Assembly (NCBI GenBank): GCA_047967505.1
Contig: CM106538.1
Direction: 5' to 3' (one strand)
Source: Dipteris shenzhenensis
Taxonomy: Eukaryota
DNA: 64,000 bases
Under the pieces are notes generated by a model. That model was not told the DNA's origin. It worked only from the letters and a program-made list of their open reading frames with translations, and ran no database searches. Positions 2,851 to 48,378 of this stretch are shown piece by piece; position 1 is the first letter of the stretch, and every line of letters starts with the position of its first letter. The position numbers were made by a program, and so were the translations under genes.

Positions 2851-2940
2851 GCGCTAGTCCACGCACCGAGGAATCAGAGTATTACAGATGGGGAGCATCC
2901 AACCTCTCCGGGGTATCCACCGCGACAAACATGGAAATCT

Positions 2941-13619: not shown

Positions 13620-13677
13620 TTGGGCTCTAGCAAGAAGATTTGGTAGTGTGTTTCTGTTTGCGAGCAGATTGTGAGAG

Positions 13678-14577
13678 ATGGCCCAGTCCGCAAGACTGCG
13701 AATCCCACCATTCAGCGAAAGCGAAAAGTTGGACGGCACTAACTATCCACTCTGGAAGTTCAAGATGAAGACCATCCTAAGCGCATATGAGCTTTGGGAT
13801 ACTGCTACTGGGGTGGACGTGAAGCCGGTTACAAGACCGAATCCAGCTAATGCAGGACAACAGATAGTACCAACTGTGGATCAGATTCTCACATGGACAA
13901 GAAGAAATGCAGATGTGCTATGTTCTATTGTTTGCGGTGTAAGTGATTCTGTCATGGCGTTAATTCAACATGTCACCACACCGAAGGAGGCATGGACGGT
14001 CTTGAAAAATCAGTATGAGACCACGAAGCACACGTGGATTTAGAATCTGGAGTCAACTCGCGAACGAGAAATTGTCTGAGTCTGAAACGGCAGAGAAGTT
14101 CATCACCAGAGTGAAGAATCTGTGCGATCAGATGACTACGATTGGCATCACCATCACTAGTGAGCACGAAGGTGCATACGGATTCTCCCACCAAAGTACG
14201 ACGGTCTTGTTATAGCACTGAATACGCAGAACAGAAATCCGCCCCTCAACTTTGAGGATTTTAGCGCAATGCTTCTGGAGGAGATGCGTCAAAAGATGAG
14301 GACTGGAGAAGATTCGGCTTTCTTGGCTGGATCAAAGAAAGGTAAGGGTAAGGACTATGGTAACCCATCTTCTTCTGATAATAAAAAGAGAAAGAAGAAG
14401 ATCAAGTGCTTCTATTGCAACAAGGCAGGGCACAAGCACAATGAGTGCCAAAAGAAGATTGCAGATGAGAAGAATGGAGTAAAGAAAGAGTCCAGCAACA
14501 GCGCGCAGGCAGTACCAATAGAGCTGTTTGTAGCAATTGAGGACATTTGCACGGAGGCAGTTCATGTACTTGCAGAT
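13678..14577 (+). pseudogene. gag: Copia gag (stops/frameshift), cut by the DNA transposon
   Basis: KLDGTNYPLWKFKMKTILSAYELWD; knuckle CFYCNKAGHKHNEC. Confidence 0.92.
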
Positions 14578-14603
14578 AACACCTATTTCATTAATTTTGG
14601 ACT
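14578..14603 (+). repeat. Left TIR AACACCTATTTCATTAATTTTGGACT
   Basis: Exact reverse complement of 42311-42336. Confidence 0.97.
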
Positions 14604-14699
14604 TTTTGTGTTGTTTTTGGACGAAGCCCAAAAATCCTTCCCAAATGAAAACTTTACTTTATGAAAATATCCTTTCCAAATCAAAATTTTACTTTCTAA

Positions 14700-16040: not shown

Positions 16041-19000
16041 TCATGGACATTCTTCATTTGCGCTATCTCCTTCTACTTCCTCCATGGCGAGCATCCTTAA
16101 AAATTCGTGTATATGCAAAATAGTTTGCTGTGGTATTTTTATTTTTCCTTCTACCTCATATCCCATGTGCTTCTTTGATTTCTTTGCCCTTGAATGCCAA
16201 GACACTATGATTGTCTCCGTCGAAACTTGAGAGACTGCTTCATCATTTGGGACCCACTCCTTCATTATACAATTAGTATATAATGTGTTGTTATCCATAT
16301 TCTCCTTCCTGCCCTTTGGCTCATACCATACCGCTGTAAATGTTGTAGCTCTCCCTTGGTCATCTCTTTGCACATCAACTACTTTTGCAACCCAAAACTT
16401 CACATTCTCATATTCATCATCCGATGGCCGAACCACAACAAAACAATCAACCTCTATATCTACTTGTGGCATAAACTCTTCTTCGGTCCACAATATGGAC
16501 GTGGGAGTAATGATACAAAATCATTTTCAAAGACTGGAGCTGGGCGCAAATCGTTATGAACATTTGGCCAAAACATATTGCATTCTTCCTTGACATCCTT
16601 TGAGCCTCGCATTCTCTCAAGGTCCTTTATTAAATTTCGTGTCTTGTTAATTACAGTGGTAGTGTGTTCTCTCCAAGCAGGCTTCGAATCAGGATATCTC
16701 TGGAGCATTTCCTCTTTGTATGTAATAAATGCTTTTAATCCATCTATTTCACAATTAGACCTCTCATTAAATTCTTGTATAGGAGCCCATGTTGGATACC
16801 TTTCCTTGCTGGGAATTGAAGTTAAGAGACTGTCAGGTTCTTCAGGTTCCCATTTTGTATCATGAGAATATTGTTGCCATTGCATTACGGGTTTTTCATC
16901 TTTAAAAAAAAAACAAAAGTAGTGTGGATTGGTATGACCTGTCAATGCATCACCACCCGTTTGTATGAAAGGTAGAATGAAGCTCTTCCAATCATACATT
17001 CTTTCGAGCCTCTCACATACTGTACTTTCCTTACGACCACCAACTTGCCTGCCACATCTTCTTACCAAGTCATCTATTGTCTCCACATCCTTGCATTTAA
17101 GCTCCCTTGAGACTGTGCAAAAAACCTGATCGATATCCTCATGTGTATGCCCAACATACAAAAATCCACATTCGACCTCATTGAAGATTCGATGAGCAAC
17201 TAGCATGGAGCAGAAGGCAAACATAAGTACATTCTTATTTTCTTGCCAGCAATTATCAGCTTGTATTCTCAAAGTCGGTGGCAGGCGACCTTTTTCTGCA
17301 TGTACATTGCGAATTGCCTTCATAATAGATGTTACAACTTGATTGCTATCATGTAGATGCAAGGAATCAATCCATATATCTGCAAAGAACTTAATTCCAT
17401 GCACTAACACTCCACATAGATGTGTCTTTAGAAAGTGCTTTCCTTGTAATTTAGGTGGAGTGGCAACAAAACGAGGCAATGTTGTTGTATTCTGATCCAT
17501 GCCATCTACAATAAGACACATGTAGTCATCAGGATGCGAAATAGCTTGCTCCTTCCAAAATGCATATTTTTGTCTGGAATGTCGAATAAGGTCATGATGA
17601 GATTTTCGGTTTTTTTTGTATAATTCCCTTTGATTTGGACATGTTGCACTCTCAATCGCTCGCTTTAAATCATCACAGACATTGCACTTTGACATTTTTT
17701 GCCTCCTTGGGATTTTAACATATCCAAAGTTCTTCTTCCAAAGAGTATACAAAGTATGAGAAGAAGCTACAGCATCCCCTCTTTGCCTTTGCTTTTCTGC
17801 AATAGAGTCAAATACTTCGAGCTTTGTCAAGCCCATTGGAAGGTGCATTTCAGTGATCGCGTCACCGTTAGGGAGTTTGGTAGATATATGGGGTTGAGGC
17901 AAAGCATTTTCATGTATGAAGTCTTGTAAAATTGATGCTGCCCTGACAGTTGAGATTCTTGATTTGGACCTTCCTCTATTACCGTGAATGCTAAATTTGT
18001 TGCCGCCCTTTGCCTTGGTGACTAAATCCCAATATGTACCATGGGATAATCCAGTAATATTGCGATATGCCTTATTGCAAATCCTTTTTCCATTTACGAG
18101 AGGTTTTACCTTTTGTCTTGAACTTAGCCTTTTATTGCCATTCTGAAGACAGCAAGAGAGACTTGTGAGAAGGTATTCATTTCTTTCGCTTCCCCTTCTT
18201 TGCCACACGTGTCCTCTACATTCCCTGATGTCTGGAAGATCAATGAAGCGCATACATCTTCGCTTGCAACATAGATATCCCAATGCATTTAACATGTTCT
18301 CCTCCTTCATTACTCTCTTCCTCTTTGGTTGCTTTTGTGGATCTGCCTGGATTCTCTTTCTCTTCATGCATATGTATGATCGTTTTCGTCCCTTGTACAC
18401 ATTGTTATCTGTATTTATGCACTTCTTCTCCTCACATTTGTTTGTAACCAAGCATCCATGATTGGTCGTTGCATCCTTGTTCATATCACAATCAAAGTTA
18501 AATATTGAATAATCCTCTGTTGATCTCATCCTCATTTTTAACATACTCTTAGGACCATTCAATGAATTCAATATTCTACGAGAGTATTGAGAACCTTGAA
18601 ACTCTTCCACTCCTGAGAGAACATCACTCATTGGGACATCTTGCATGGCTTTCACAAATCCACAACCTTGATTGACACCAGGTTTGTTAATATGCATGAA
18701 CTCATCCACACTTGACAAGACATCGCTATTGAAACCTTTGCCCTTCTCACTGTGCAAGAATTCATCCACCCCAGATAAGGCTTCGCTTCTAAAATCATTT
18801 TGTTTCTTGGAACCAATGAACTCATCCACTCCAGATAAGATGTCACTTCTATAATTGAGTATATTGAAATCATCCACATTTGAAGTGATAGAGCCTGGCA
18901 CATGGGCACGCTTTTTAGGTCCTTTGATATTGTAGTATGCGTTGTCTTTATCATTGAAAACCACGTGCCTCTTTCTCATGTTTAAAAATTGCATGCTCCA

Positions 19001-19536
19001 TCTCATATTCTTGCCTACCTCATAGTAGGGATCACATAAGGATGTTATGTTATCAACCATACCATCATCAGTGACTTTTAGAATCCTCATCTGTGCAAAT
19101 GACCATTGCTCCACTTGTTCAAATCCCAATACTTCACCTTCTGCTACAATCTTATTTGCAAATGATCTCATTTGTAAAATGTCCCCTATAGTAAAATCCA
19201 AGGTGGTGCTGTTTGTATTCTTGATAATGTCTGTTGCATAAGTCTCATCTTTGTCCCATGCTATAAATGATTTATTGGATGTATTGTAGGGCATAACATC
19301 TCCAAGTGTTTCCATATCTCCACATTTATACTTTAGCTCAACATGTGCGCTAAGAATCTTTGATACAGTAACTGCTACCTTATCTTCGCCAAGTCTTCGA
19401 AAGTGGCAAAGTGAATTGGGATCACTATCATGGATTGTAGCAAATGCAACTACTTCTCTTTTGCTACATAAAATCACATCCATCCCTAGAACAAAATCTA
19501 TAGCCATCTCCTTTGTGAGAGTCCTTCGCAAGCAAG
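16041..19536 (-). CDS. Sola1-like DDD transposase with one frameshift near 16490
   Basis: ORF 16460-19531: KMSKCNVC..H, LIVDGMDQ, LRIQADNCWQENKN, FLYVGHTHEDIDQVF. It continues in ORF 16041-16493 (FVVVRP..FWVAKV..VWYEP). A CTGCAG acceptor at 19537 precedes the ORF and the first ATG is at 19507. Confidence 0.85.
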
Positions 19537-19632
19537 CTGCAGTGGCAACAATTACATAAATATTAGTCTCTTTTTAATAATCTACTTATTTATTATAATT
19601 TTTAATTAGTACTTAATTTATTAGTGGGAGAA

Positions 19633-27649: not shown

Positions 27650-27880
27650 TGGGAGCCAATGGGAGAGGAGATAAATGAAAAGCCAATAGGAGAGAGGGGA
27701 GGAATGGAAAGCCAATAGGAGAGGAGGAGGAAAACCTAATTTTTCTTATATATAGTCTTCCTTCATTCATTCATTCTCCTCTCATTTCATTCAAGCAAGA
27801 AAGCAAGGACGATCAAGAGAGCAAGGAAGGAAGAGCAAGAAAGCAAGAAAGAGCAAACTTACAAACTGTTTCCAGGTACT
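27650..27880 (+). promoter_or_regulatory. Putative Pol II promoter and non-coding first exon of the cargo gene
   Basis: CCAAT at 27656, 27683 and 27712; TATATATA at 27747-27754; pyrimidine patch; CAG|GTACTT donor-like site at 27876. Confidence 0.55.
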
Positions 27881-27944
27881 TGCAAACTTTTTTTTCTAGT
27901 TTCTTTTTTAAAATTTGAAGAGAGAGAAACTAGAGAGAGAAAGG

Positions 27945-30130
27945 TTCAGGGGAGGGGAGGGAGGGGAGGGAGGAGGAAGGGAGGGGAGGAAGAGGGTGGG
28001 ACGGGAGGGAGGAGGAAGGGAGGGGAAGAAGGGGCGAAGAGGGAGGTGGGTGTGAGGGAAGGGGGTGGGAGGGGAGGCTGGCGCGGCGGGTGGGAGGGAA
28101 GCGGGTGGGTGCGGAGGGGGGCTGAGAGGAGTAGGGGGGAGCGGCTGAGAGGGGGAGGGGGGGGCGCGGCTGAGAGGAGGGGGGAGCGGCTGAGAGGGGG
28201 AGGGAGGCGGGGCGGGGCGCGGCTGAGAGGGGGAGGGAGGCGGGGCGCGGCTGAGGGGGGGAGGGGGGGGAGGCGCGGCTGAGAGGGGGAGGGGGGGGGC
28301 GCGGCTGAGGGGGGGAGGGGGGGGAGGGTGAAGAGGGGGGGCTGGCGGCCGCGGCTGCCAGCCCGGGAGGGTGGGGGAGCGGCTAGGGGGGGCGCGGCTG
28401 AGGGGGGGGGGGGAGGGTGAAGAGGGGGGGCTGGCCGCCAGCCCGGGAGGGTGGGGGAGCGGCTGAGGGGGGAAGGGGGGGTGGGGGAGGGCTTGCGATG
28501 GGGGAGGGGTTGCGAAAGGGGGGGGGGGGGGGGTGAAGAGGGGGGGGCTGGGTGAGAGGAGGGGGGGGGGGCTGGCGGGAGGGTGGGTTGCGAAGGGGAG
28601 GGGAGCGTGGGTTGCGAAAGGGGGGGGGAGAGTGAAGAGAGGGGGGCTGGGTGAGAGGAGGGGGGGGGGCTGGCGGCCGCGGCCGCCAGCCAGGGAGGGT
28701 GGGTTGCGAAGGGGGGGGGAGCGTGGGTTGCGAAAGGGGGGGGGAAGAGTGAAGAGAGGGGGGCTGGGTGAGAGGAGGGGGCGGGGGGGGCTGGCGGCCG
28801 CAGCCGCCAGCCCAGGGAGAGAGGAGAGGGGGTTGCGAAGGGGTTGGTGGGTGAGAGGAGAGGGGAGGGGTTGGGTGAGAGGAGGGGGGGGGGGGGCTGG
28901 CGGCCGCGGCCGCCAGCCAGGGAGGGTGGTGAAGGGGGGGATGGGTGGGTCGCGAAGGGGGGGGGGGGAGGGTGAAGACCCCCCTGGGTGAGAGGAGGGG
29001 GGGGGGCTGGCGGCCGCGGCCGCCAGCCAGGGAGGGTGAAGGGGGGGGATGGGTGGGTTGCGAAGGGGGGGCGGGAGTGTGAAGGGGGGGGGGCTGGGTG
29101 AGAGGAGGGGGGGGGGGGCTGGCGGCCGCGGCCGCCAGCCCAGGGAGAGAGGAAGGAGAGGGGGGGGGCTGGGTGAGAGGGGGGGGGGGGCTGGCGGCCG
29201 CGGCCGCCAGCCAGGGAGCGTGAAGGGGGGGGATGGGTGGGTTGCGAAGGGGGGGGGGAGGGTGAAGAGGGGGGGGGCTGGGTGAGAGGAGGGGGGGGGG
29301 GGCTGGCGGCTACGGCCGCCAGCCCAGGGAGAGAGGAGAGGGGGGGGGCTGGGTGAGAGGAGGGGGGAGAGAGGAGAGGGGGGGGGGTGGCGGCCGCGGC
29401 CGCCAACCAGGGAGGGTGAAGGGGGGGGGGATGGGTGGGTTGCGAAGGGGGGGCGGGAGGGTGAAGAGGGGGGGTGGGTGAGAGGAGGGGGGGGGGGCTG
29501 GCGACCGCGGCCGCCAGCCCAGGGAGAGAGGAGAGGGGGTTGCGAAGGGGCTGGGTGAGAGGAGAGGGGGGGGCCTGGCGGCCGCGGCGGCCAGCCAGGG
29601 AGGGTGAAGGGGAGGATGGGTTGCGAAGGGGGGGGAAGGTGAAGAGGGGGGGGTTGGGTGGTGAGAGGAGGGGGGGGGGGCTGGCGGCCGCGGCCGCCAG
29701 CCCAGGGAGGGTGAAGGGGGGGGGATGGGTGAGAGGAGGGGGGGGGGCTGGCGGCCGCGGCCGCCAGCCCAGGGAGAGAGGGAGGGTGAAGGGGGGGGGG
29801 ATGGGTGGATTGCGAAGGGGGGGTGGATTGCGGAGGGGGGGGCTGGGTGAGAGGAGGGGGGTGTCGCCAAGGAGGGAGGGAGGGAGGGGGGGCCAAAGGG
29901 AGAGTGGGGAAGAGGGTGGAAGGGTTGGGGGGGTCGCCAAGGGGGGTGGGGAAAAGGGAGGAAGGTTAAAAGGGGGTAGGGGGAAAAAGGGGTAGGGGAG
30001 GAAGAGGTTAGGCGACGGGAGAGGGGAAGGGTAGCGGGAGGGGAGGGGGGAGGGGGAGGGGGATTTTGGGGAAGGAGGGGGGGCGAGGGGAAGGGAGGAG
30101 TTTTGGCGGCGGAGGGAGGGGAGGGAAGGA
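27945..30130. repeat. Extremely G-rich minisatellite with recurring GC palindromes
   Basis: Long G runs, GGGTGAGAGGAG, GGGTTGCGAAGG and GGCTGGCGGCCGCGGCCGCCAGCC modules. Confidence 0.93.
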
Positions 30131-30839
30131 GGTTGGAGGAGAGGATTGGGTCGAGGGATGGATGGAGGGAAGGAGAGGAGAGAGAGGAGAGAGAGAGAAG
30201 GAGAGAGAGAGAGGAATGAAAAGGACTTACGAGAATGAAAAGGACTTACATGAAAAGGACTTACGAGAATGAAAAGGACTTACGAGAATCGAGAAGAATG
30301 TTGAAAAAAGTATCAAGAAGAATGTTGAACATAAATTTGAATTCAAAAGGAACGTATAAGAAGAAAGTATAAGAATGTTGAACACAAATTTGAATTCAAA
30401 TTTATAATGAATTCAAATTTCCCTCTCTTTTTTGAAAATTCAAATTTATGTGTAGGAGTGGACTAGTTTTAACTCTCTCCTCGTTTCATTGAAGCAACCA
30501 AGAGCGGAAGAGAAAGGATAAGCCGAGCCTTACTTTTTTCACTTTTTCCAGGTACTTGCATTCTTTTTTATTGTCTTGTAATTCTATTTCTTTACTTACA
30601 ATTCTTTTCAATTAGTTTCTTGTTAAGGTTTTTGAGTTCTATTTCTTAAAATTCGTATTGTAATTCTTTTTCTTTACTTATAATTCTTTTTCAATTAGTT
30701 TATTCTTAAAGTTTTTGAGGAGGGTGGTCTTTTAGAAGGCATTACAATTCTTTTTAAATTAGTTTCTTATTTGAGTTTTTGAGTTCTATTTTAATTAGTT
30801 TTTTATTTATATTTGAGTTTGTAAATTTGAGAAATGGGA

Positions 30840-31253
30840 GAATAGGGAGGGAGGGAAAGAGAGAAATTAAGAGAGAGAAGAGAGGCTCCTTAAGAGAGGG
30901 AGAGAGAGAGAGAGATTCACACAGAGAAGAGGGGCTCCTTAAATGAGAGAGAAGAGTAGGGAGGGAAAGAAAGAGAGAGGAGAGAGGCGGAGAGAGATTA
31001 AGAGAGAGAAGCTGGTAAAGAGAGAGGAGAGAGGGGGAGAGAGATTAAGAGAGAGAAGCGGGTCTCTTGGGGGCCGTGGCTACTTGAGGGAGGGAGAGAG
31101 TAGGGAGAGAGAGGGAGAGAGAAAGAGAGAGAGGGAGAGAGAGAAAGAGAGAGAGGGAGAGAGAGAGAAAGTTTATGGGAATGAAACGTGGCGAGAGGAG
31201 AGAGGAAAAGAGAGAGAGAGAGAAGAGAAGAGGGAGACTTAGGGAGAGAGAGG

Positions 31254-31319
<66 letters not shown>

Positions 31320-31843
31320 TGAAACTTCTGTGCTAGAGGGAGGGAGAGGAAGAGAGAGAATAAGTGGGATGAGGATAGAGAGAAAAATACTTAAGAGTTG
31401 TCAAAGAGAGAGAGAGAGAGATTAAGAGAGAGAATGAGGTGTCTTGACTATGGCTACAAGGAGATTTAGGAGGAGAGAGAGAGAGAGAGAGAGAAAGTAA
31501 AGAGAGTTTTATATATTTACATCTTTTATATTATATTTTTAAATGAGAGAGAAGAGTAGGGAGGGAAAGAAAGAGAGAGGAGAGAGAGGGAGAGAGATTA
31601 AGAGAGAGAAGCCGGTCTCTTGGGGACCTTGGCTTCTCTTGGGGACCGTGGCTCCTTGAGGGAGGGAGAGAGTAGGGAGAGAGAGGGAGAGAGAGAGAAA
31701 GAGAGAGAGGGAGAGAGAAAGAGAGAGAGGGAGAGAGAGGGAGAGAGAGAGAGGAATGAAAAATACTTAAGAGTTATAGAGAGAGAGAGAGAGATTAAGA
31801 GAGAGAATGAGGTGTCTTGACTATGGCTACAAAGAGATTTAGG

Positions 31844-31878
<35 letters not shown>

Positions 31879-31920
31879 TAAAGAGAGTTTTATATATTTA
31901 CATATTTTATATTATACTTT
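30840..31920. repeat. GA-rich microsatellite block with an internal duplication (600-bp offset)
   Basis: AAATGAGAGAGAAGAGTAGGGAGGGAAAG at 30941 and 31541; downstream segments are shared. Confidence 0.85.
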
Positions 31921-32349: not shown

Positions 32350-32960
32350 AGTTTATCAGTGGGCAGATTGCATGAGCAGATATCAGTGGACAGATTGCAT
32401 GAGCAGATATCAGTGGACAGATTGCATATATCAGTGGGGACAGATTACATGTCATGGGACATATTGGAGCTTGATGATTATTGGTTATTTTTATTGCATT
32501 TGTATAAATATTTAAGCTCATTTATTGTCATAAAAATCCTTGTAAAGCCTTTTATGCTATTTTTTACATTTATTGTCATATGAAGCGCCTTGTAATAAAC
32601 CCGACCATCCCGACCATTCACTAATTAACGAGTATCAGTGGGATGCATAAGTGGATATCATGTGGGCTGCATAAGTGGATATCAGTGGAACAGTTTTTAG
32701 TGGATAGATTGCACCAGTTGGGTATCAGTGCTCAGATATCAATGGATGGACAGATTACATGAATCTTCACGAAGATTGAAGCTTTATTACTAGACGACAT
32801 TTTATATTACTTGTAAAGCTTTATTGGCATTCTTTTACATTTGTACAAATATTTAAGCCTTGTAAAGCCTTTTAGGCTATTTCCCACATTTATTGCCATA
32901 TAAAGCCTTGTAAAGCCTTTTGGGCTATTTTCCACATTTATTGTATCAAGGGTTGTATAT
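32350..32960. repeat. Short repeats (27-bp ATATCAGTGGACAGATTGCATGAGCAG; TTGTAAAGCCTTTT)
   Basis: Directly visible tandem and near-tandem copies. Confidence 0.75.
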
Positions 32961-33012
32961 TGTACTTTACTTGTATGTATCTAAATTCTTCATTATCTTT
33001 TCTTGTAGGATT

Positions 33013-36000
33013 ATGGAGCAATCAGCTAATGTGATGGCTATGCTAGATGACTCTGAGATCAGAGAATGGGTTTCTGATGTCACTTTGAATTTCAAAGGAA
33101 AGGAATATAGCCCCAATGGCTTTGGTAGGTGGACTCGATATCACATGGGTAGAAGAGCCTGGTTTCTTTATCAAAAGGAAAAGAGACTCTTTCTACTTAT
33201 GTCAAAAAGGGAGTTCAATGGTGTTGAAGATCCATGGGATGCTACTTTCTTCAAAAAAGATATGACTTCAAGCCTTGTAGTAGGCATAATAATTCAGCGA
33301 AAAGACACCTTTGTGGATATTTTAACAAAGAGTTCAGATCCTGAAGTTGGCGGTATGCATTTTATTGTGTCAAGGAGAGACGCAAAGACCTTTGTGATGC
33401 CTCCTCCTCAACCATCAAAGTTTCCAGAGTTGCAAAGGGCATTGGAGACTCTTTCATATACTTGGGAGCAATTTCCTAGTGTGGTGGCAAAAAGGATGCA
33501 TGCAAAGATAATGTTTGAATACTTTAAGGATGCAGAATATGCTCTCCATATGCAAGAATCATCACATGAAGGAGATCAAAAAGCTCAGACTTCAATGCAG
33601 GGACAAGAAGAACAGGCACACTGTCACAAACCTGTAGAACATGAGCGCAAACTTCTAGAGCAAGAAATGGTGAATGTAACTAAGGATGATGAAAAACAAG
33701 CCTTGAGTGCACGGGAATTAGCAAAAATTGAAGAAGATCAAGGTCGATCCACTGCAGTTATGCTAGAAGCTCTTGCTAGCAAACCACGACGTGAAATGCA
33801 AAAGGCTAGTACTGCAAGAGCCACGGTTCCAAGCAGTAAGAAAAGACATCGTCCCACTGTAGAGAAAGATAATGTGGATGAAAAACGGTCAAAAAAAGAG
33901 AAAGATGAAGAAGACTCAGAATCCGAGGCTGAAGATGATCAAGATGAACTCACATCAATTAAAAATCTTAATCTACGTCTTAATGAAGCAGTTACAGATG
34001 ATGATGTGGGATATATCTGGGGTCAAAGGACGTGTTTGTGAATGCCAAAGATGTGGAAGCTGCAGCTCTGTTTACTAATAGCCGAAGCCTTGATATATCC
34101 TATGCAATGCAAATATACGAGGCTTTGAGAGATGGTAAGAAACCTGTGGCAAGTAATGTGGTCTTGCACCCAATAATGTTTTGTCCAACCAAAAATAGTT
34201 TTCTGGATCAAATAACATTTACAGGGCCTACACATTTCGAGGAGATCTTCAGTCAATTCTTTAAAAACACTCTAAAAAATATTCCACATGAACAAGGCGA
34301 AGAGGCACAAGGAGAGAATATGCTAAAGGAAGTCAAGAAGGAATTTCTCCTTCATTGCAGATTCCAACCCATTGATGGTCAACATTGGGCTTATGCTTGT
34401 AATCAGATCGCAAGGGAAGCAAAGGAGGGCAAAAGACTCACTCCAGAACAATTTGTAAAGATAAGCTCATTCCATTATTATCCTGCAACGATCTGTATAT
34501 TCAAGCATGAGATTAAGTATTTGATTGAGTCCGAAAGACTTAATCATTATGTCCATGGAAAGCGTAAGATATCCTCAACATCAGAGGTCTTACAGAAGGC
34601 AAGGGTGATATGGACAACATTTGGTTCCCCAAATCCTGATTTGAAGCGAAAGGTCACAAAAGCAGACGCCGACACACTCACAAACTTTTATACTTCTTTG
34701 AGTGCAGTTGTGCCTAGGGGAACCCAAGAGCGGGAAGAAAGTATGACAAGCCTCAAGGTGGTGAGGGACAGATATGCCGACTATACTTCTATCATATTTC
34801 GTCCTGTTGAAGTGTTCAATGAGATGCTTGAAACGTGCATTGCTTGTGAGCGTGGACAGCTGACCTATGAAGCTCCTTTGTTTATCTCCGGCAAGTCAAA
34901 GGTAATGGATAAGAAGGAGTTGACGGCAAGGATGTGGAGGCCTGTAAAGTACTTACCTGATAAGTATGCATCCATGGCAGCACAAAGAATTTTAAAGAAA
35001 GAATGGTTTTTTGGAAAAAAAGACAAAGACCACTGCATGGAAGAATGCATCAATGTACAGGTGAGGCGTGATGCAGTGCATAGTGCCATCAAGTATTTGC
35101 TGTCAGAGAAACAAATTCCACTTACTCATTGCAACATTGACTATAATGTGGTGAAGCATATAGCTTCTTTGTCAACACCCAAGGTAAAGCTATGGGCCAA
35201 CAGGTGGATTAAAAAGGATGAAGATGGGTCGGAAATAGTAACCTCTTATATGAGAAAAGAGATCCCACAACAGGTGGTTGCATATATGGAAAGATTAATC
35301 AGCGAGATAAGAATGCCGACAGATATGCACCAAAGCTTTCAATTCAATGTAGAGGTTACGGCAGAGTCTGGAAAGCTTGTCAACTTCAGGGGAGTCTCAG
35401 AAGATGACTTCTTTAAGAATGAGTCAGCATGGGATAAGCCACAACTATTCTTTATCAATGAAGTTTCTAGCGATGATATCCATAACTTCATTGATAGAAT
35501 AGTATATACCACCATTAGCAAAGTGGCGATTTGTAACATTGTCATATTTGTTGATAAAAAAGACAAAGAAGCCATGCAGGTTACTCTAGAGCGAGCATAT
35601 TCATCAAATTTGAAGATCTATAGTGGTGTTTATGCAGCAAAGAGAGGCAAGAGAGAATGTGGCATAGCGATTCAAACTCTTGAATCATTCTTTCTATGTA
35701 TGCGGAGTCCCAACCCTGATCACTCTTTACAAAAGAACATAAGAGGGAATTCAAATAATTTGAGATTGATGCTAGAAGAGCAAGATATTCCCAGGTCCAT
35801 ACATTATCAAAAAAACAACTACGGAAGTCCTGCAAAAAGTGGGAGTCTCTTGCTTACCATGATGGAGAATTTGCTGCCGGCAGGTTGGGAGGTCACCTTG
35901 TGCAGGATGGGATATTTATTTGAGGATCTCCTAAGAAAAGGCAACTCCACCAATATTATTGAAAATAAGCATTTCATGGCCTATTTCCAGCTTCAAGCAG

Positions 36001-39000
36001 ATCTAACCACAGGCTATGAAAAAGAGATAGACCACAAGGACACCGATGACATGGATGATTACCTTGAAGATCATAATGTCCCAGTTGTTGATGATGAAAA
36101 GATGGACTTACATGACCCATTCACAGAGAGGTTGGTGGATGAAGACAAATATGATGATGCCCTCTTTGATAATTATGGCTCGCAGGGTTATGAAAAAAGG
36201 CCACTACGACAATACTTAGCGGTATGAACTCTCTATTTCTCAACTAAATACAATTTTTTAAATAAGATTTAAATTTAAAGATAATGAATCTAATCTCTCA
36301 TATTTGTTTACAGGCAATAGAGGGAGAAGAAATGGATGAAGTCAATACGGAGGCACTCCCTTCTATTTCAACAATGCAACCACCTCTAAATTTGATTGAA
36401 AAATCAAATTTAGCTGCATTAGATAAAATGGAGAGCTCATTTCAAGTTAAGATCGTTTTGAAACGAGAACCTCAGTATTTAAGCTTTGGTAGAGAGGAGG
36501 TTTCAATCCTCTCCAATCCTTTAAAAGAGGTTAATGACAATGTTATCTTGGCCATTCTCAGGTAATGTTTATTTATTTATTGCTACTTCAATAAGCTAAC
36601 ATTTGTTTATTTATTCACAGTTCAGTTATATATCAGTTTCCTAGTGCAGAATGCAAATCAATTCTATGAGCTAATGTTTGTTTATTTCTTGGTGCAGTGT
36701 AGTTATTTCTCAACAGTGCAGCATCGTGTCTACATGCTCGATGCTCTCCTTTCTTCTATTCTTAGCTCTCCTCAAAAGACTATAGAAGATGTTTGTACCT
36801 GGTTAAGCCCTTTGAATTTAGATGGGGTGCAAGTCATCTTAATGCCTTATCATGAGGCGTAAGTATCAACACTAACCTTATTTTTACTATTTCTTTGGCA
36901 AGTTTGTGTAAAACAATAATCATTTTTATTCTGGTCGTGTAGCTCACATTGGAGTCTGATCTTCTGGGACCTTGAACTCAACCATTTATGGTTTGTGAAT
37001 TCAATAGAAGGCTATCATGCCAACTCCCCAAGGTAATTATTCTCTTAATATTTTTGATACTTTCTTATTTTGTATCTTATGATCATGACATATTAATATA
37101 TTTCATATGTCATGCTGGACAGTGCTGCATATCGGCTAGTATCTGCTGTCAGAACAACCACGGAGCAACAAGATCAAGTAGAATTCAAAAGACGTCTGCC
37201 AGTGGAGCAAAAAGATGGACACAGCTATGGGTGGAGAGTCGCCTACAACTGCATGTTGTTTCTTAGAGAGATTTTTGATCTGGAGTTACCAGTCAAAATG
37301 GAATCATATACAGAAGCTGATCTGCTAGCATTTCGGGCTGAGAGTATTCAGCATCTAATTACTACCATTGGGAAACAACATGAAAATATGACTACATTGC
37401 AGCATGTATAAAACCTTATCTTTATACTTGTATACTTGTTCCAGCCTTTAATTGGGATGTATAAATCTCATAACTTTTTTATATTTTCTTCCAAAAGGAG
37501 AAGAGAATGAGTTTAATGAAAGCATGCTATCTTTATACTTTTATAATTATTTAAACCATTAATTTTATTTGGGATGTATAAATCTCATAACTTGTCTAAT
37601 GAAAGCATGCTATCTTTATACTTCTATGATTATTTAAACCATTATTTTTATTTGGGATGTGTAAATCTCATAACTTTTTAAATTTTTCATCCAAGAGAAG
37701 GAGAGACTCACTCTAATGAAAGCGTGTATGAAACCTTTTTAAATTTTTGCTCCAAGCAGAGGAAAGACTTACACTAATGAAAGCATGTATGAAACCTTAT
37801 CTGCTTGTTTAAGCCTTTATTTGGGATGTGTACATCGCATAACTTTTTTATATTTTTATGGCAGAAGGAGGATGTGGAAGACATAGCAAGTAAAGAAGAA
37901 TACGATGTAGACTACTCCCTCAATAAGATGAGTCATAAAAATATGAATCTATTGGAGCAGATTGGAAGTTCATTCACTGCTATGTTGTTAATTCGACAAC
38001 AACCTCATTTTTTTGAATTTGGTGAAGAAGAGATTTCAATCCTCTTGAATCCTAAGAATGAGGTTAATGTCAAAGTCATTACAACCATCCTCAGGTTTGA
38101 TGCAGCCTTTTCCTTGGCTTTATACTTTGCTTATTTTGATTAAACCCAAGAAGCTAATACTTTTTTTTTTAATATAGCAATGTTATAGCAAATTTTTCGC
38201 AAAATATACAAAGCGTTTCATATATGCTCGATCCTCGTATTTCGGAAGTGCTTAGCAACAAAGAAGAAACCATAGAGAATGTTTGCAAGTGGTTGAAGCA
38301 CATTCCTATGAATGACGCACGAGTTATTTTTACAGCATATTATGAGAAGTAAGCATCAAACCCTACTTGTTTTTTCTATTGCATTGCTAGAATTGTCTCA
38401 AACACAGTAATTATTCTTTATTGATAATGCAACTCACATTGGAGTCTGGTAGTCGTGGACATCCTTGCGAAGAAGTGCTTCTTTGCAAACTCAATGACAT
38501 CCGTCCATGGCAATGTGTTAGAGTAAGTATAGACTACACTTGTTGTCACTTCTTGACATGTAGATTGATATGCAATGCACATATTCACTGTTGTTATATG
38601 TTTTGATATGCAGATTAGCTCGAAAATTAGTAGATGCTATCGGCATAGTAATGCGGCAATGTGACTTGGCACAACAAATAGAGTATATAACATGTCAGGT
38701 ATCACATCAAGATAATAGCCACATCTATAATTGTGGATGGAGGGTGGGCTACAATTGCTTTTTGGTACTTGGTCAAATTTTTGAGATGCAAAATGACACC
38801 ACACTATCAACATATACGGATTTGCATCTCTATGCATTTATAACATGTACCATTCGAGCAATCATTGATTGCGAAATGAATGCCATCAAAGAGTCAAAGA
38901 GGATAGATGACCTCAACTCTACAAACATGGCCTCATTAAAAGAATTGGGAAGCTCTTTTAATGTTAGGGTTATGATTCAACATAGACCTCAGTATCTTGA

Positions 39001-40221
39001 ATTTGGGGGAGAAGAGATTTCAATTCTCTCTAGAGCTTCAAATGAGGTCAATAACAACGTTATGATGGCCATTCTCAGGTTTGATACAAACTTTTTCTCT
39101 ACTTGATAATTCAATATTTTGATTTAATCTAATAAGCTAATAAGCTAATATTCATTTATTTTGATTAAATCTAATAAGCTAATATTCATTTATTTGTTGG
39201 TGCAGTATAGTTATCTCACGATTTGGTAGAGTCGTACAAAATCGTGCGTATATGTTGGATTCCCTCCTTTCTCCTATACTTAGCGATAGCAGAAAGACAA
39301 TAGCCGATGTTTGTAAATTATTACAGCCTTTACATTTACATGGCGTGCGAGTCCTATTTATGGCATATCATGAGATGTAAGTATCATGGCAACCTTTATT
39401 TTCATCTTGTACTGGCAACATTGTGTTAAATAATAATGGTTCTTAGTTATTCGTGTAGGGAACATTGGAGTCTGGTGGTTTGGAACCTTGAAGACAACTA
39501 TTGTTGGTTTGTTAACTCCATTGCAGGCTTTCATGGCTCAGTGCAAACGTAAGTATTCTATTAATCTGTTGTTACTTCTATATTATGTACCTTATGTGAT
39601 AGATACACTAAGTTTTTTTAATATGTCACGATGAGCAGGTCAATTGAGAAGTTGGTATCTGCTATCAGAGAAACAGGACAGTACAAAGACTCGGTAGACT
39701 TCCAAAAGCGTTTAGTAGTAGAGCAGGAAGATGGGCATAGTTGTGGGTGGAGAGTTGCCTACAACTGCATGTTGATTTTCAAAGAAATTTTCTCACTTAT
39801 GCCACAGATCTCATCGGAAGACTCTTTAGAGCTCAAATATTCAGAGGAGGATATACAATTGTTTAGGGCTGAAATCATTCGAGACCTAATTGCTGCCATT
39901 AGAATACAACGTGCAACTGAAGCAATACCAGAGCTTCCCTTTAAGGAAGAGGAGACTGAGTTTACTATGAAAGCACTGCATACTACAGAAGAAGTAGAGA
40001 CCCAATGTACACCTACAGCACCACAGCCTCCACTGGAAGCATCAGAAGAGTTGCCACCGCCTCCACTTGCATTTAAGGAAGAGGATACTGAGTCTACTCC
40101 GAAAGCACTACATACTACAAAAGAAGTAGAGACCGAGTGTACATCTACAGTACCACAGCCTCCATTGGAAGCATCCGAAGAGTTGCCAGAGTCTCCACTA
40201 GAAGCATCACAAGAGTTGTGA
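33013..40221 (+). pseudogene. Multi-exon transposon cargo gene: ParB/DGQHR-like + methyltransferase-like + 3 x Ulp1/C48-like protease; several disabling lesions
   Basis: ATG at 33013 after a TTGTAG acceptor; frameshift ~34002-34040; phase-0 GT-AG intron 36222-36313 joins the 731-aa ORF to the protease exons; repeated exon pattern; stop at 40219-40221. Confidence 0.75.
36314..39900 (+). CDS. Three tandem spliced Ulp1/SENP-like (peptidase C48) modules
   Basis: HWSL at 36947, 38437 and 39463, each followed by F.NS and then Q.D..(S/N)(C/Y)GWRV.YN (37226 Tyr, 38732 Cys, 39742 Cys). Confidence 0.8.
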
Positions 40222-42310: not shown

Positions 42311-42336
42311 AGTCCAAAATTAATGAAATAGGTGTT
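42311..42336 (-). repeat. Right TIR
   Basis: AGTCCAAAATTAATGAAATAGGTGTT followed by AGAT. Confidence 0.97.
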
Positions 42337-44443
42337 AGATGAACCTTGGATTATTGACAGCAGTGGTGCATCGTGCCACATGACCGGTCGTAAGGATTGG
42401 TATACCTCTCTACATCCGGTAGGGAATGACATCCTGGTAGCAGCCGGCAATGATGCAAAATGTCTAGCAAAAGGAAAAGGTATGATTGCTCTCAAGTCAG
42501 ATGGAGTTGTAAAACAGTTGTCCGATGTTCTTTATGTGCCAGATATCAAGAGGAACTTGTTGTCCATTTCTACGATCACGGATCGGGACCTCAAAGTTCA
42601 CTTCGATAAGAATGGCGCACAGATTTTGGATCTTCAAGGGAAGGTCATTGGTAAAGGTACACAACGCAACAACATCTACGAACTCTCAGTTTTCAGTGCT
42701 CAAGCCGATGTGAGCAACACTAAGCTGTGGCATGAGAGGTTTGGTAATCTAAACCATAGTTCTTTAAAGGAGATGCATAAAAGTGGGATGATTGCAGACC
42801 TACCTGAAATTATAGATCAACCCGATGTATGTGAAGCTTGCATGATGGACAAGTAGCATCGGCAGCCCTTTCCTAAAGAGGCCAGTAGGGCAAAGGCTCC
42901 TCTAGAGCTCGTTCACATGGACCTCTGTGGAAAGATGGAGACGGAAGCTTTGGGTGGTTCCTACTACTTCATGACCTAATCGATGACTACAGTAGAAGGA
43001 TATGGATATACTTCCTGAAGACTAAAGATGAGGCTTTTAGTAAGTTCAAAGAATGGCATGTAATGGTCGAGAAAGAAACGGGGAGGAAGGTGAAGAAGTT
43101 GAGATCAGACAGAGGTCGTGAGTTCACCTCAAGTGAATTCAAAAGTTACTGCAAAAGTCACGGGATCAAGAGGCAGAAACCCTAGCAAAATGGAGTAGCA
43201 GAGCGCAAGATGCGCGTCATCTACGAAATGGGTAGGAGTATGATGAAAGGGAAAGATTTGCCAAAGACTTTCTGGGCTCAAGCATGTAACACGGCAGTTT
43301 ACATTCTGAATCGTAGCTACACGAAGGCTGTGAACGGGATGACTCAAACTGAAGAAGGCACTTTACGGGCTGAAACAGGCCCCACGAGCATGGTACCAGC
43401 GAATTGATGCCTACTTTCTGCAAAACGGGTTCAAGAGGAGCCCATCTGATGCAAATTTGTATATCTACAGAGAAGGAGGCAGTTGTATGATCGTGGTCCT
43501 TTATGTGGACGACCTTGTAATAACAGGGAACCATGAAGAAAAGATATCGCAGACAAAGCAGTTGCTATGAAGAGAGTTTGAAATGACAGACCTCGGACTC
43601 ATGCATTTCTGTTTGGGGATTGAAGTTTGGCAAGAGCCAAAACAGATCTTCATCTCACAGCTGAAGTATGCTAGAGAGATACTGAAGGCATTTGGCATCG
43701 CTGAGTGCAAGACACTTGGCACCCCTATGGAGGTTGACGTGAAGCTCTCAAATGAGGATTCATCACCACTGGTGGACGAAGTGAAGTACAGAAGGCTTGT
43801 GGGCAGTTTGATTTACTTGTGTAACACGCAGCTGGACATCAGTTTTGCGACCAGTGTACTAAGCAGGTTTTCTAATAAGCCCTGGGAGAACCATTGGAGG
43901 GCAGGGATGCGGGTGCTGAAATACATCAAAGGCACATTTGATTATGGCATCACCTATACCAAGGGCAACATCTTGACCGGATTATGTTACTCGGATTGGG
44001 CAAGAGATGTGGACAGCAGGAGATCAGTGACAGGTTACTATTTCTCACTTAGATCTGGAGCTGTGTCATGGGTCAGCAAGAAGCAACCTACAGTTGCTCT
44101 TTCTTCTACCGAGGCTGAGTACAAGTCAGCATGTTTTGCTTCTTGTGAGGCAGTGTGGTTAAGGAGGATTTTAGGGGACATGGGTGCAGTGCAGAACAAG
44201 CCTACGCAGTTATCATGTGACAATCAGAGTTGCATGGCAATTGCCAAGAACCCGGTGTACCACGCTCGCACAAAACACATTGAGATTCAATATCACATTG
44301 TACGCGAGCTCATCATGGATGGAGAGGTCGACTTAGTGTACTGTCCGACTACAGAGAATGCTGCGGACATCTTCACGAAGGCTCTTGGAAGAGACTTGCT
44401 GGAGAGGCATCTTCATCGACTTAGCATTGGGTCGAAAAAGTAG
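42337..44443 (+). pseudogene. pol: Copia pol (protease, integrase, deleted IN-RT junction, RT, RNase H)
   Basis: WIIDSSGASCHMT, LWHERFG..CEAC, LELVHMDLCG, LKKALYGLKQAPRAWY, YVDDL, SKKQPTVALSSTEAEY, ADIFTKAL. Confidence 0.95.
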
Positions 44444-45327: not shown

Positions 45328-45843
45328 CTCTGAAGAAGAGTCAACATATTGTCCAATAGGAAAAATGCATTTTCAAAAATTTTTAAAATGCCTGATTTCT
45401 GCTTTGCCCAATTTGAAGCATTACCAAAGGGCAGGCCAAAAATAGATCTCAGCGGGCAAAGGCCCTTTGCCTGTGATCTAAAACACACACACACCCCTTC
45501 CACTAAAGCACCGTGAGATTAAGGCCGTTGGCCTTTGAACGTGTTAAGAAGAATGTTGAGTTGAATGTCTTAACGTGTAAACTTTGAACAGTTCAACAAA
45601 CCGAATATTCTTGGAGCGATGGGGAAACACTTTTATTAGCCTATAGTTTTATTTCTGGTGTCGCATTGGTTCCAATAGATAATGCTCGTCGTCATCGTTC
45701 CTCGAGTCCTTTGATCTTTGCCTCTTTCGTACGCATCTCCAGCCCTTCTCACCTCATAGCTTCACTTACTCTCCGGGCACACTCGACAATCACTTGGTTG
45801 AGTCCTAGAGCTTCAATCTCGGAGTTTCTTCTCAGTCTGTTCT

Positions 45844-48378
45844 ATGATGTTTCCTCCTTGCCCAGTTAGGCTCCTGTGGCTTTTATTTTTGGCTCTGCTG
45901 CATCATGTCTGCTCCGGTCAAACTGCTTTACAATCTCGCGTGAAGCTTAATTTCAGTTACACCATGGCGCCATCGGATTATGCACAGGATGCTTTGGAGA
46001 ACCTTCTACAATCTCCGAACGGTACGTTTCAGCTTCAGTTTGGGACGCTGCCCGGCCAATCCAATCCGCATAGCGTGGGGATTGTACATACTCGATCCGC
46101 TACTCTTGTGTGGTACACTTACCGGGTCAGTACTAATCCCGGCCAGTACGATAACTTGGGCGGTAGTTATACTTCGCTATCTCTGAGGCAGGATGGAAAT
46201 CTTGTGATTACGGTGGAAGGCAAGGGTGTAGATGTTTTGGTTTGGAACAGCGGCACTACAGATCAAGGCGTGCAAGCCATGGAACTGCGGGAGGAAGGGA
46301 ACTTAGTTTTGTTGAACGCCTCCGGGGGAATTGTCTGGCAGTCTTTCGATCATCCCACCGACACTCTGCTTCCTAATCAGCGGCTTCTTCCTGGGATGAC
46401 TCTAGTGGTGTCTGCCCGCAATCGATACCCATCCGTCGGAACAAACATTCTGAGACTGGAGCAGCACCGACTGGTTGCCTATGCGGACTATGTGGAGCAG
46501 GAGCCGTATTGGCAGCTTCACTTTCCTGACAATCGTCAAGTTGCATATGCTGCCATTGTGAACGGAAGCATCTCTCTTTTCGACAATAATGCAAACATAG
46601 TAAGTCACGCAGGCAACACTAGCAATAGTCCCGCCCCAAGTGCGCTGCAGCGTTTCATCATCGCTGATGACGGTAACATGCGGCTCTTCGAGTACATCAA
46701 TGCGAGCAACTCGTGGGCTCAGCAGTTACAGGTCATCCAGGAAGCATGCGCTCTACCAGACGACTGTGGATTCTACGGCCTCTGTGTTCCCGGCCAGGCT
46801 TGCGCCTGTCCTCCCACCTTCAATCTTCTGGTCACACTGAACGGCTGCGTCCCTCCCCGTGGCCTGGTTTGCAACAGTCCTCACGGTAATGACTTTGTCA
46901 AAGTTCCCTACGCTTCTTACTTTGCTCTGCCTCTATCATCGCCCCCAAATCTCAGTTTTAAGCAGTGCCAAAGTCTCTGCACGAGCAATTGTTCCTGCCT
47001 GGGCTTCTTCTATGCTGCGAATGGATCGTGTCTGGTTACACATCAGATGCGCACCTTCAGTGCGTCTGTGTATGGGAACTACACCCAACAGTATGCTTAC
47101 GATCTGTATGTAAAAGTACAGGGAAAGCCGCGGTCTCCGCTAGCGATAATCCTGGGGGTATGCATACCCGTAGTGGTGATTGTTTTCTGTTTACTACTAT
47201 GGCGGTTTGTGAGGTACAACGTGAAGGTAGCGCACGTGGAGGAGGAAGAATTCTTGCTGGGGGCATTACCGGGGCTACCACCGAGGTATTCATACAGGGA
47301 GCTGAAGGCGGCGACGAGGGGGTTCAGCGAGAGGATAGGGGGGGGATCGTTCGGGTCGGTGTACGGGGGGGAGCTGGGGGATGGGACGAGGGTGGCGGTG
47401 AAGCAATTGGAGGGGGCGATGCAGGGGAAGAAGGAGTTCCATGCCGAAGTAGCGACGATAGGGACGGTGAGGCATTTGAATCTGGTGAGGCTGAGGGGGT
47501 TCTGTTTGGAGGGGAAGCACAGGCTGCTGGTGTATGAGCACATGGACAGAGGATCACTGGACGGATTGTTGTTCAAGGAAGGCGGAGGAAGTGACGGACT
47601 TTCATGGACGGAGAGGGTGGCCGTGGCCGTCGGAGTTGCGAGAGGATTGACGTACTTGCACGAAGGTAGCCCCGATTGTATCATCCATTGCGACGTGAAG
47701 CCCGAAAACATCTTGGTCGATGCTGACGGAAATGCCAAACTGTCGGACTTCGGGCTGGCGAAGCTCATGAGCCGCCGGCAGCAGACTTCGTTCGAGACCA
47801 ACGTACGCGGCACCCGCGGATACCTCGCGCCGGAATGGCTCACCGGACGGCACCCGATCACCGAAAGGGCCGACGTATACAGCTACGGCGTGGTTCTCTT
47901 GGAAATATTATCAGGACGACGGAACTACGACGGTTCCGTCGAGTCCAGCCGGAGTTATCTGCCGGAATGGGCGCTGCGCAGCGCCGGAGATGGCTCCCGG
48001 GTGCCGGAAATTCTCGATACGACGCTCGTTCTCGACGCCAACGACGACCTCCTCGCCGACGCTCAGCGTCTCCTGCTCGTCGCCCTCTGGTGCCTGCAAG
48101 AGGACCCCGCCTCTCGCCCCGCCATGAGCCGTGTCGTCCGCATGCTCGAAGGCGACCTCGCTATCTCCGTCCCGCCTCCTCCTCCCTCCCCGCCCTTCGA
48201 CGACGACTCCTTCGCCGGCTCTTCGCCCTTCCAGATCGATGCTTCTCGGCCAGCCGGTGCTCGCCTCACCACCAGCGAAGTCACCCTCCCCTTCCTCCGC
48301 CGTGCCTCCCGCTTCTTCTCCTCCTCCTCTTCCTCGTCCAAATCTGCCGTCCCCTATCATGCCTCCACTGCATTCTGA
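45844..48378 (+). CDS. G-type lectin S-domain receptor-like Ser/Thr kinase (SD-2-like, non-RD), intronless
   Basis: Signal peptide; B-lectin (LRQDGNLV, GNLVL..WQSFDHPTDTLLP); EGF-like CALPDDCGFYGLC; PAN CQSLCTSNCSC; TM helix; kinase GGGSFGSVY, VAVK, HCDVKPEN, DFG, GTRGYLAPEW. Confidence 0.96.
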   Translation: MMFPPCPVRLLWLLFLALLHHVCSGQTALQSRVKLNFSYTMAPSDYAQDALENLLQSPNGTFQLQFGTLPGQSNPHSVGIVHTRSATLVWYTYRVSTNPGQYDNLGGSYTSLSLRQDGNLVITVEGKGVDVLVWNSGTTDQGVQAMELREEGNLVLLNASGGIVWQSFDHPTDTLLPNQRLLPGMTLVVSARNRYPSVGTNILRLEQHRLVAYADYVEQEPYWQLHFPDNRQVAYAAIVNGSISLFDNNANIVSHAGNTSNSPAPSALQRFIIADDGNMRLFEYINASNSWAQQLQVIQEACALPDDCGFYGLCVPGQACACPPTFNLLVTLNGCVPPRGLVCNSPHGNDFVKVPYASYFALPLSSPPNLSFKQCQSLCTSNCSCLGFFYAANGSCLVTHQMRTFSASVYGNYTQQYAYDLYVKVQGKPRSPLAIILGVCIPVVVIVFCLLLWRFVRYNVKVAHVEEEEFLLGALPGLPPRYSYRELKAATRGFSERIGGGSFGSVYGGELGDGTRVAVKQLEGAMQGKKEFHAEVATIGTVRHLNLVRLRGFCLEGKHRLLVYEHMDRGSLDGLLFKEGGGSDGLSWTERVAVAVGVARGLTYLHEGSPDCIIHCDVKPENILVDADGNAKLSDFGLAKLMSRRQQTSFETNVRGTRGYLAPEWLTGRHPITERADVYSYGVVLLEILSGRRNYDGSVESSRSYLPEWALRSAGDGSRVPEILDTTLVLDANDDLLADAQRLLLVALWCLQEDPASRPAMSRVVRMLEGDLAISVPPPPPSPPFDDDSFAGSSPFQIDASRPAGARLTTSEVTLPFLRRASRFFSSSSSSSKSAVPYHASTAF

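Follow-up and report, generated by a model that had tools for sequence, protein, structure and literature searches.

Fusions of a ParB-fold domain to an N6_N4 methyltransferase are given as among the commonest phage ParB fusions in the portion of bioRxiv 10.1101/2025.10.10.680097 that we draw on. According to the accessible part of PMC4738411, eukaryotes took up methyltransferases from phage ParB-terminase loci, some of them in algae, and a chlorophyte-type Dam carries at its N-terminus a helix-turn-helix (HTH) of the ParB type. Here we describe a locus in a stretch of 64,000 nucleotides (nt) from contig CM106538.1 of Dipteris shenzhenensis (the window), which is eukaryotic and plant-like. The first-pass annotation of this DNA had noted that ParB-methyltransferase fusions exist in prokaryotic mobile elements, in agreement with their frequency in phages as stated in the same preprint, and had proposed, as a reading of spacing and pattern, an eroded beta-class N6A/N4C DNA methyltransferase-like region at 35370-35990. 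This region (residues ~455-662 of the protein P0001) is a real, conserved protein segment. It forms the globular C-terminal domain of a eukaryotic protein that is conserved but unannotated. In the best single reading, to which we assign a probability of about 0.5, this domain follows a ParB-like head and has a methyltransferase-like fold that is not catalytic.

Comparison of the predicted protein, by description only, with the phage and prophage ParB-N6_N4 fusions (PF02195 plus PF01555) suggested several common features: (i) a ParB-superfamily head comes first, (ii) it is followed by a beta-class fold, putative in our case, and (iii) the protein is carried by mobile elements, which for the window family is suggested by its context. 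The window family differs from these phage proteins in that it is eukaryotic, has a ~260-residue helical linker and a DGQH head without the Arg, lacks motifs IV and I, and is matched by neither Pfam model. Since the two-part architecture is the same, descent from a phage-type ParB-N6_N4 methyltransferase fusion would be the simplest origin, and the family would be a new variant on the ParB-methyltransferase theme. The eukaryotic acquisitions provide a precedent for the gain of methyltransferases from phage ParB-linked loci; however, as far as the same part of PMC4738411 goes, they can be recognised as methyltransferases and belong to other clades (Dam-type group 2 and the haptophyte FHA-fused clade 6), and their ParB part is an HTH rather than DGQH. 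None of the three phage proteins that we scanned was a ParB-methyltransferase fusion (0/3), and a ParB_N search of 201 genomes gave, among the matches listed, mainly frames of chromosomal-ParB size.

All four peptide strings quoted in the first-pass annotation are real and belong to one plus-strand frame, 34005-36227, that is free of stops over 740 codons. By our own arithmetic, the chance of such a frame staying open is ~1e-21 at ~40% GC, and over 35370-35990 the remaining five frames offer only open stretches of at most 92 amino acids (aa). The open frame, together with its conservation, identifies the flagged stretch as coding. The protein and its parts are laid out as follows.

32914..34041, plus strand: upstream open frame P0002 of 375 codons, with the first ATG near 33013
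34005..34041, plus strand: the two frames overlap here, and the reading frame shifts beside a G run
34005..36221, plus strand: main exon P0001, 739 codons up to a GT donor, with an in-frame stop at 36225-36227
34074..34544, plus strand: N-terminal DGQH module, P0001 residues 24-180 (alignments, hhalign)
34545..35336, plus strand: mostly helical middle of the protein (residues 181-444), which is collinear with P0005, P0011, P0007 and P0024, its helices taken from a low-confidence whole-protein AlphaFold2 (AF2) model
35337..36026, plus strand: predicted C-terminal alpha/beta domain holding the flagged region, residues 445-674 (AF2 model, VIA-align, conservation)
35436..35465, plus strand: KPQLFFINEV, residues 478-487 by translation; strand and N at the putative motif IV position (model strand E65-69)
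Residues 509-517, plus strand: ICNIVIFVD (translation)
Residues 560-568, plus strand: LESFFLCMR (translation)
Residues 607-653, plus strand: GSPAKSGSLLLTMMENLLPAGWEVTLCRMG..LLRKGNSTNIIE (translation)
35886..35915, plus strand: WEVTLCRMGY, strand and one Gly at the putative motif I position (model strand E214-218, helix H221-228)
35961..35963, plus strand: E653, at the end of the strand NIIEN (alignment)
36027..36221, plus strand: acidic low-complexity tail, read from the sequence; P0006, P0007 and P0024 likewise have acidic tails
36222..36313, plus strand: putative GT..AG intron of 92 nt (sequence reading, phase checked by hand)

P0002 seems to contribute its last residues to the protein of the 740-codon frame. 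P0002 ends with DVGYIWG, similar to DGGYVWG at residues 250-256 of P0024 (5/7 identical; BLASTP E 0.72, not significant alone), and by hand count this block is separated from TN(Q/H/S)R by 17 residues in the window and by 19 in P0024. The block G(Y/F)V(W/F)G...V.M..V, found before TNQR in P0015 and P0024, is divided here between the two overlapping frames, and the frame change probably reflects a frameshift of this copy or else an error in the assembly. For the rest of P0002 no relative was detected. At the other end, GT follows codon 739, and by hand reading the next frame begins in phase after an AG at 36312-36313; the 740-codon frame seems to be spliced to this next open frame and on to three Ulp1-like units.

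A phmmer search of 1.84 billion representative proteins with P0001 (E <= 0.001) returned 13 proteins, of which 12 were retained and together tile the query. The remaining one, P0013 (1,927 aa, matched at E 4.4e-4 in six short stretches), is likely a spurious repeat protein and was excluded from all alignments. Nine relatives cover the N-terminal 260 residues, P0005 covers residues 214-299, and P0011 covers 315-424. The flagged part is covered by one of the 13 matches, P0006 (269 aa), which spans query residues 478-695 at E 8.7e-12; its pairwise comparison with the flagged part gives a BLASTP E of 4e-20 at 27% identity. P0007 (1,097 aa) and P0024 (1,199 aa, from a cluster look-up) are full-length proteins of two other lineages and are collinear with the whole of P0001. 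Eight further close paralogues of P0007 (P0016-23), located on different contigs, came from a profile search, several of them truncated or with frameshifted tails, and the cluster of P0016 has 11 members on contigs of 8 different lengths, some truncated or frameshifted at the tail; a multi-copy lineage with broken members is what a repeated element in decay usually looks like. The C-terminal domain is known in four lineages, represented by the window, P0006, P0007 (with P0016-23) and P0024. Another relative, P0004, comes from the lycophyte Diphasiastrum complanatum. The sequencing runs in which the DNA is best represented bear the label 'algae metagenome'.

No Pfam domain was found in the 17 relatives scanned, and sequence searches of Pfam, NCBIfam, PADLOC and PDB gave no family name for the protein. 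No near-length homologues of P0001 were found, P0007 being the only longer protein with alignment A1, and metagenomes scanned once with P0001 and once with alignment A4 gave 0 relatives among 41 and 31 pattern matches. Keyword searching of open-access text turned up no description of the family, which appears to be undescribed in the literature that could be searched. Two weak PADLOC matches, HamA (E 0.0033, window protein only) and PDC-M07B (E 0.0017, P0012 only), were judged to be chance because the remaining 7 or 8 of the 9 scanned proteins lack them. P0024 begins with MARTKQTAR (residues 1-9), which we take to read like the N-terminal tail of histone H3, either a mimic or a gene-call artefact.

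The evidence on the fold comes from structure prediction. Single-sequence AF2 of the whole protein was unusable (predicted local distance difference test, pLDDT, 34.8), and the full-length alignment A5, misaligned in the C-terminal domain, was kept out of folding. AF2 of residues 416-675 with A6, a checked 10-row alignment, reached a pLDDT of 52.4 and a predicted template modelling score (pTM) of 0.56 (model m69a715d2e64a). The model consists of beta-alpha-beta units, a hairpin, a disordered insert (model residues 145-196), and then helix-strand-helix-strand-helix. In P0001 the first half is predicted to run through the strand VNFRG, the helix EDDFFKNESAW, the strand QLFFIN followed by EV, a helix, the strand NIVIFVD, another helix, and a hairpin leading to SFFLCMR; after the disordered insert come the helix SLLLTMMENLL, the strand WEVTLC followed by RMGY, a helix, the strand NIIE, and a final helix. 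This would be the circularly permuted order of beta-class N6A/N4C methyltransferases, with the catalytic half first, a variable insert at the target-recognition position, and the cofactor-binding half last.

We compared the model with 48,161 PDB chains using VIA-align, which is independent of Foldseek, and examined the best 50 rows. They include eight PF01555-type DNA methyltransferases (M.MboIIA, M1.HpyAVI, EcoP15I Mod, CcrM, M.BceJIV, Mbo45V Mod, the rotifer N4CMT, and M.RsrI), as well as the ciliate MTA1 complex. The PDB contains 15 distinct PF01555-type sequences, which we grouped into 11 proteins; thus 8/11 are among the best 50 of 48,161, where by our arithmetic ~0.01 would be expected by chance. 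These methyltransferases provide the longest alignments in the best 50 (153-183 residues, model residues 31-260) and take in almost all of the ordered part of the model. No ordinary, non-permuted class I methyltransferase was seen by title in the same set, which fits the permuted beta-class order. M.MboIIA, M1.HpyAVI, M.RsrI, CcrM and EcoP15I Mod would share with the domain the predicted topology and a collinear structural alignment over the whole domain; they differ from it in that the domain has no DPPY, no FxGxG, and no sequence or profile similarity to them, and the Z is low.

The catalytic motifs are absent from the whole family. At the putative motif IV position, (D/N/S)PP(Y/F/W) is missing in all lineages, which read FFINEV (window), FFINEL (P0006), MFDCRR or LFDCRC (P0007 lineage), and VVDCRT (P0024); the same strand has the longer form LWMFDCR or LWVVDCR in relatives, and only the first N/D of the motif is retained, the placement being inferred from topology and not from a residue-level structural alignment. 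The strand at the putative motif I position is WQVALYQMGF, WALIVQGLTA or WMIALVGLTN in relatives, and FxGxG is absent in all four lineages (CRMGYL, YQMGFA, VQGLTA, VGLTNC), with at most one Gly there; GSG/GSF is invariant in the eight genuine PF01555 enzymes of our reference alignment A7 (E. coli YhdJ and seven phage enzymes). An acid after the last-but-one strand is kept in all lineages (E/D; VIDT, VLES, VLEN and FFED in relatives), and the position of E653 is presumably that of the ribose-binding acid of motif II in Rossmann methyltransferases. The loss of DPPY and FxGxG claimed in the first-pass annotation holds insofar as both are absent, whereas its term eroded is misleading: no family member found keeps either motif, so any loss is old and family-wide and not an erosion of this copy. 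The plant relatives retaining DPPY/FxGxG that it had suggested looking for did not emerge from the sequence and profile searches of the family. With both motifs lacking throughout the known family, the domain most likely does not act as a methyltransferase; it more likely provides a DNA-binding or scaffold module.

The N-terminal module of P0001 contains TNSR, LHPI, FQPIDGQHWAYAC and ESERLN, and the consensus of its relatives is TNQR ... L(R/H)PI ... (F/W)EP(V/I)DGQH..AC ... ES.R.N. DGQH is retained in 9/11 rows covering the site, P0003 having YGQH and P0004 DSQH. The head would thus carry the QR, DGQH and N motif series of bacterial DGQHR domains, as this motif is defined in the part of PMC4619093 used here. 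At a low maximum-accuracy (MAC) threshold, hhalign aligned QR, DGQHR and the N of FxxxN, all in order; the reversed control gave E 0.7. By this low-probability alignment, the module would share with DGQHR/DndB proteins (TIGR03187, PF14072) the QR pair, DGQH and the downstream N in the same order; it differs from them in the exchange of R for W/F/I/V, in the loss of the F of FxxxN, and in the spacing from QR to DGQH (92 columns vs 64 in the consensus). The hidden Markov models (HMMs) of DGQHR/DndB gave no NCBIfam match for 10 proteins at E <= 5 and none in Pfam, and hhalign of the N-terminal domain vs 30 canonical ParB N-terminal domains gave E 0.46. Assignment of the module to the DGQHR domains (DndB-type, ParB/Srx-fold) is reasonable but unproven. 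The QR pair of the window copy, at 34074-34085, reads TNSR, compared with TNQR or TNHR in relatives.

Several results weigh against a methyltransferase-like fold behind a ParB-like head. The structural matches to methyltransferases are poor (Z 5.8-7.2, root mean square deviation (rmsd) 4.2-5.5 A), and FNR/NOX-type NAD(P)H-binding domains account for 26 of the best 50 of 48,161 at equal or higher Z (up to 7.4) and with a better rmsd, albeit across fewer residues (113-133); the alignment behind the model represents no more than about three independent lineages. The check by AlphaFold and Foldseek proposed in the first-pass annotation yielded a low-confidence Rossmann-like model, but no Foldseek match reached E <= 0.001, the best being 6e-3 in PDB (unrelated) and 1.1e-3 in BFVD (an unnamed protein at rmsd 16.8 A). 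The PF01555 HMM, which scores phage enzymes at 151-175 bits as a positive control, did not match P0001 or 12 relatives at E <= 1, or five more at E <= 5. Sequence and profile searches of Pfam, NCBIfam, PADLOC and PDB found no methyltransferase (in PDB, P0001 and alignment A2 gave no match, and A3 gave frataxin alone, at E 1), and an ESM Atlas search with the C-terminal domain alone gave no usable match. In hhalign, the family alignments A3 and A8 vs A7 both had a probability of 0.1% (E 0.43-0.48), and a forced long alignment set the motifs in a register unlike the one proposed in the first-pass annotation. These hhalign negatives are weak, since the same set-up at these alignment sizes also misses the accepted relation of DGQHR to ParB (E 0.74). 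As for the head, the residue that follows DGQH is never R, and hhalign vs 14 bacterial TIGR03187 DGQHR proteins (E 0.0096) had a probability of 4.3%. Finally, the locus is not bounded by terminal inverted repeats or by long direct repeats, and its sole inverted pair is 34 nt at 71%. Taking 8/11 methyltransferases and their long alignments against the poor Z and rmsd and the FNR/NOX rows, we put the odds for a methyltransferase fold at about even. The beta-class scaffold proposed at the outset is partly supported, by the order of strands and helices in the model and by its structural neighbours, but not by any sequence or profile link, and FNR/NOX domains score as high.

In the main rival explanation, the domain has no methyltransferase ancestry and is one of the many alpha/beta domains of general Rossmann-like type, for instance a CARF-like, PIN-like or FNR-type nucleotide-binding domain, the resemblance arising from a vague model; we regard this as possible, though doubtful. 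The FNR-, CARF- and PIN-type matches align 104-144 residues, about half of the domain, vs 153-183 for the methyltransferases, and the share of PF01555-type proteins in the best 50 of 48,161 is far over the chance expectation. No FNR-type motif is apparent in the domain sequence. In addition, the domain is preceded by a ParB-like head, and ParB is often fused to phage N6_N4 methyltransferases, according to the consulted portion of bioRxiv 10.1101/2025.10.10.680097. The N/D with which every lineage follows the first core strand (FFINE, LFDCR, VVDCR), the acid that ends the last-but-one strand, and the one Gly after the strand of the cofactor half could instead reflect ligand binding and an active enzyme with an unorthodox site, either a methyltransferase working through N/D and other residues or another nucleotide- or cofactor-dependent enzyme. 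This is highly improbable in our view: PP(Y/F/W) and FxGxG are missing in all four lineages, and the residues after N/D vary between EV/EL and CR by lineage, which argues against a shared catalytic loop.

A decaying pseudogene copy, in which the pattern seen by the first-pass annotation would be a chance similarity in a dead frame, fits the frame change near 34005-34041 that cuts the conserved N-terminal block from the rest, and the S in place of the Q of the QR pair. Yet the 740 codons without a stop, the match to P0006 (E 4e-20) and the collinearity with two full-length lineages make this explanation quite unlikely, and the frame change may be an assembly error beside the G run. Given the match to P0006 and the collinear full-length lineages, the domain is real even if the window copy is no longer intact.

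If the domain indeed has a non-catalytic methyltransferase-like fold, it would serve, together with the ParB-like head and connected to it through the helical middle, as a DNA-binding or scaffold module, and a mobile element would carry the protein, which would tether an effector to DNA or chromatin. We infer the carriage by a mobile element and the tethering of an effector from the apparent splicing to the Ulp1-like units and from the multiple and broken copies elsewhere; the methyltransferase ancestry, the ParB-like head, the splicing itself and the function are likewise put forward as interpretation. The family would then be a eukaryotic, Pfam-less descendant of phage ParB-methyltransferase fusions, present in at least four diverged lineages and devoid of the catalytic motifs; a pseudo-enzyme DNA-binding module would join the known toolkit of eukaryotic mobile elements, and a testable idea would be available of how Ulp1-carrying plant elements find their targets. 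Should this interpretation fail, what is left is a conserved domain family with a DGQH head that is new and whose fold is unknown.

A more far-reaching scenario, which we consider unlikely, is that a phage or plasmid ParB(DGQHR)-methyltransferase fusion was captured in the distant past by eukaryotic mobile elements, lost catalysis, and now acts as a sequence- or modification-sensing DNA-targeting head. In streptophytes it would be fused to tandem Ulp1 proteases of the small ubiquitin-like modifier (SUMO) that strip SUMO-dependent silencing factors from the element's own chromatin, as a green-lineage counterpart of the DUF3723 cargo of Starships. The nearest ESM Atlas clusters to the whole protein are those of fungal DUF3723 (PF12520), with a score of 0.94 and with 174, 165 and 166 of 256 features shared in the top three clusters; the Atlas recognition of 1691 is under the 2300 mark, and DUF3723 is thus a lead only. 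The DUF3723 Pfam model gave no match in P0001 or 17 relatives at E <= 1-5. DUF3723 is described in the accessible part of PMC9156397 as a conserved cargo gene, of unknown function, of the fungal Starship giant mobile elements. Both are proteins of unknown function; the carriage on giant mobile elements is described for DUF3723, whereas for the window family carriage by a mobile element is only suggested.

Downstream of the putative intron, within 36314-40221 (plus strand), three diverged tandem multi-exon copies with 65-74% nucleotide identity carry HWSL and Q.DGHSCGW motifs.

36314..37411, plus strand: Ulp1-like unit 1, several short exons (SSFQVK.., ..ILMPYHEA, SHWSLIFWD..NS.., ..QKDGHSYGW..), from repeat families D6, D15 and D16
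37938..38800, plus strand: Ulp1-like unit 2; its exon 38428-38526 (HWSLVVVD..) matches Pfam Peptidase_C48
38922..39900, plus strand: Ulp1-like unit 3 (..QEDGHSCGWRVAYNC..), from repeat comparison and motif reading

The matching exon of unit 2 has 32 residues and scores E 0.0033 and 17.7 bits against PF02902, under the cut-off of 20.7. Peptidase_C48 was not found in the other six Ulp1-like exon pieces, scanned singly; Pfam and PDB scans of the unit 3 exon were empty, and a PDB search with one Ulp1-like exon gave nothing relevant. The Asp position of Ulp1 reads Asn in units 1 and 2 (..VNSI.., ..ANSM..), and unit 1 has Tyr at the expected catalytic Cys (DGHSYGW). Two 132-nt tandem repeats follow the Ulp1-like units at 39934-40197.

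Elsewhere in the window, the locus is flanked by retrotransposon remains at 496-2853 (minus strand), 13675-14664 (plus strand) and 42332-44443 (plus strand), with Ty3-type gag containing zinc knuckles, and copia-type pieces of gag and of reverse transcriptase/RNase H. An intact frame of 1,037 codons at 16460-19573 (minus strand) matches Pfam DUF7869 (E 1.9e-51), has DDE-like motifs, and is probably the transposase of a DNA element; keyword searching of open-access text found no paper with the term DUF7869. A receptor-like kinase of the G-lectin S-domain type (B_lectin, S_locus_glycop, PAN, Pkinase), 858 codons long and intronless, lies at 45802-48378 (plus strand) within an island of higher GC (0.55). 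The stretch 27700-31900, immediately upstream of the gene, consists of ~4 kb of low-complexity, strongly strand-asymmetric DNA, with a GC content of 0.77 and a GC skew of 0.69 at 28-30 kb and AG-rich repeats at 30.8-31.9 kb.

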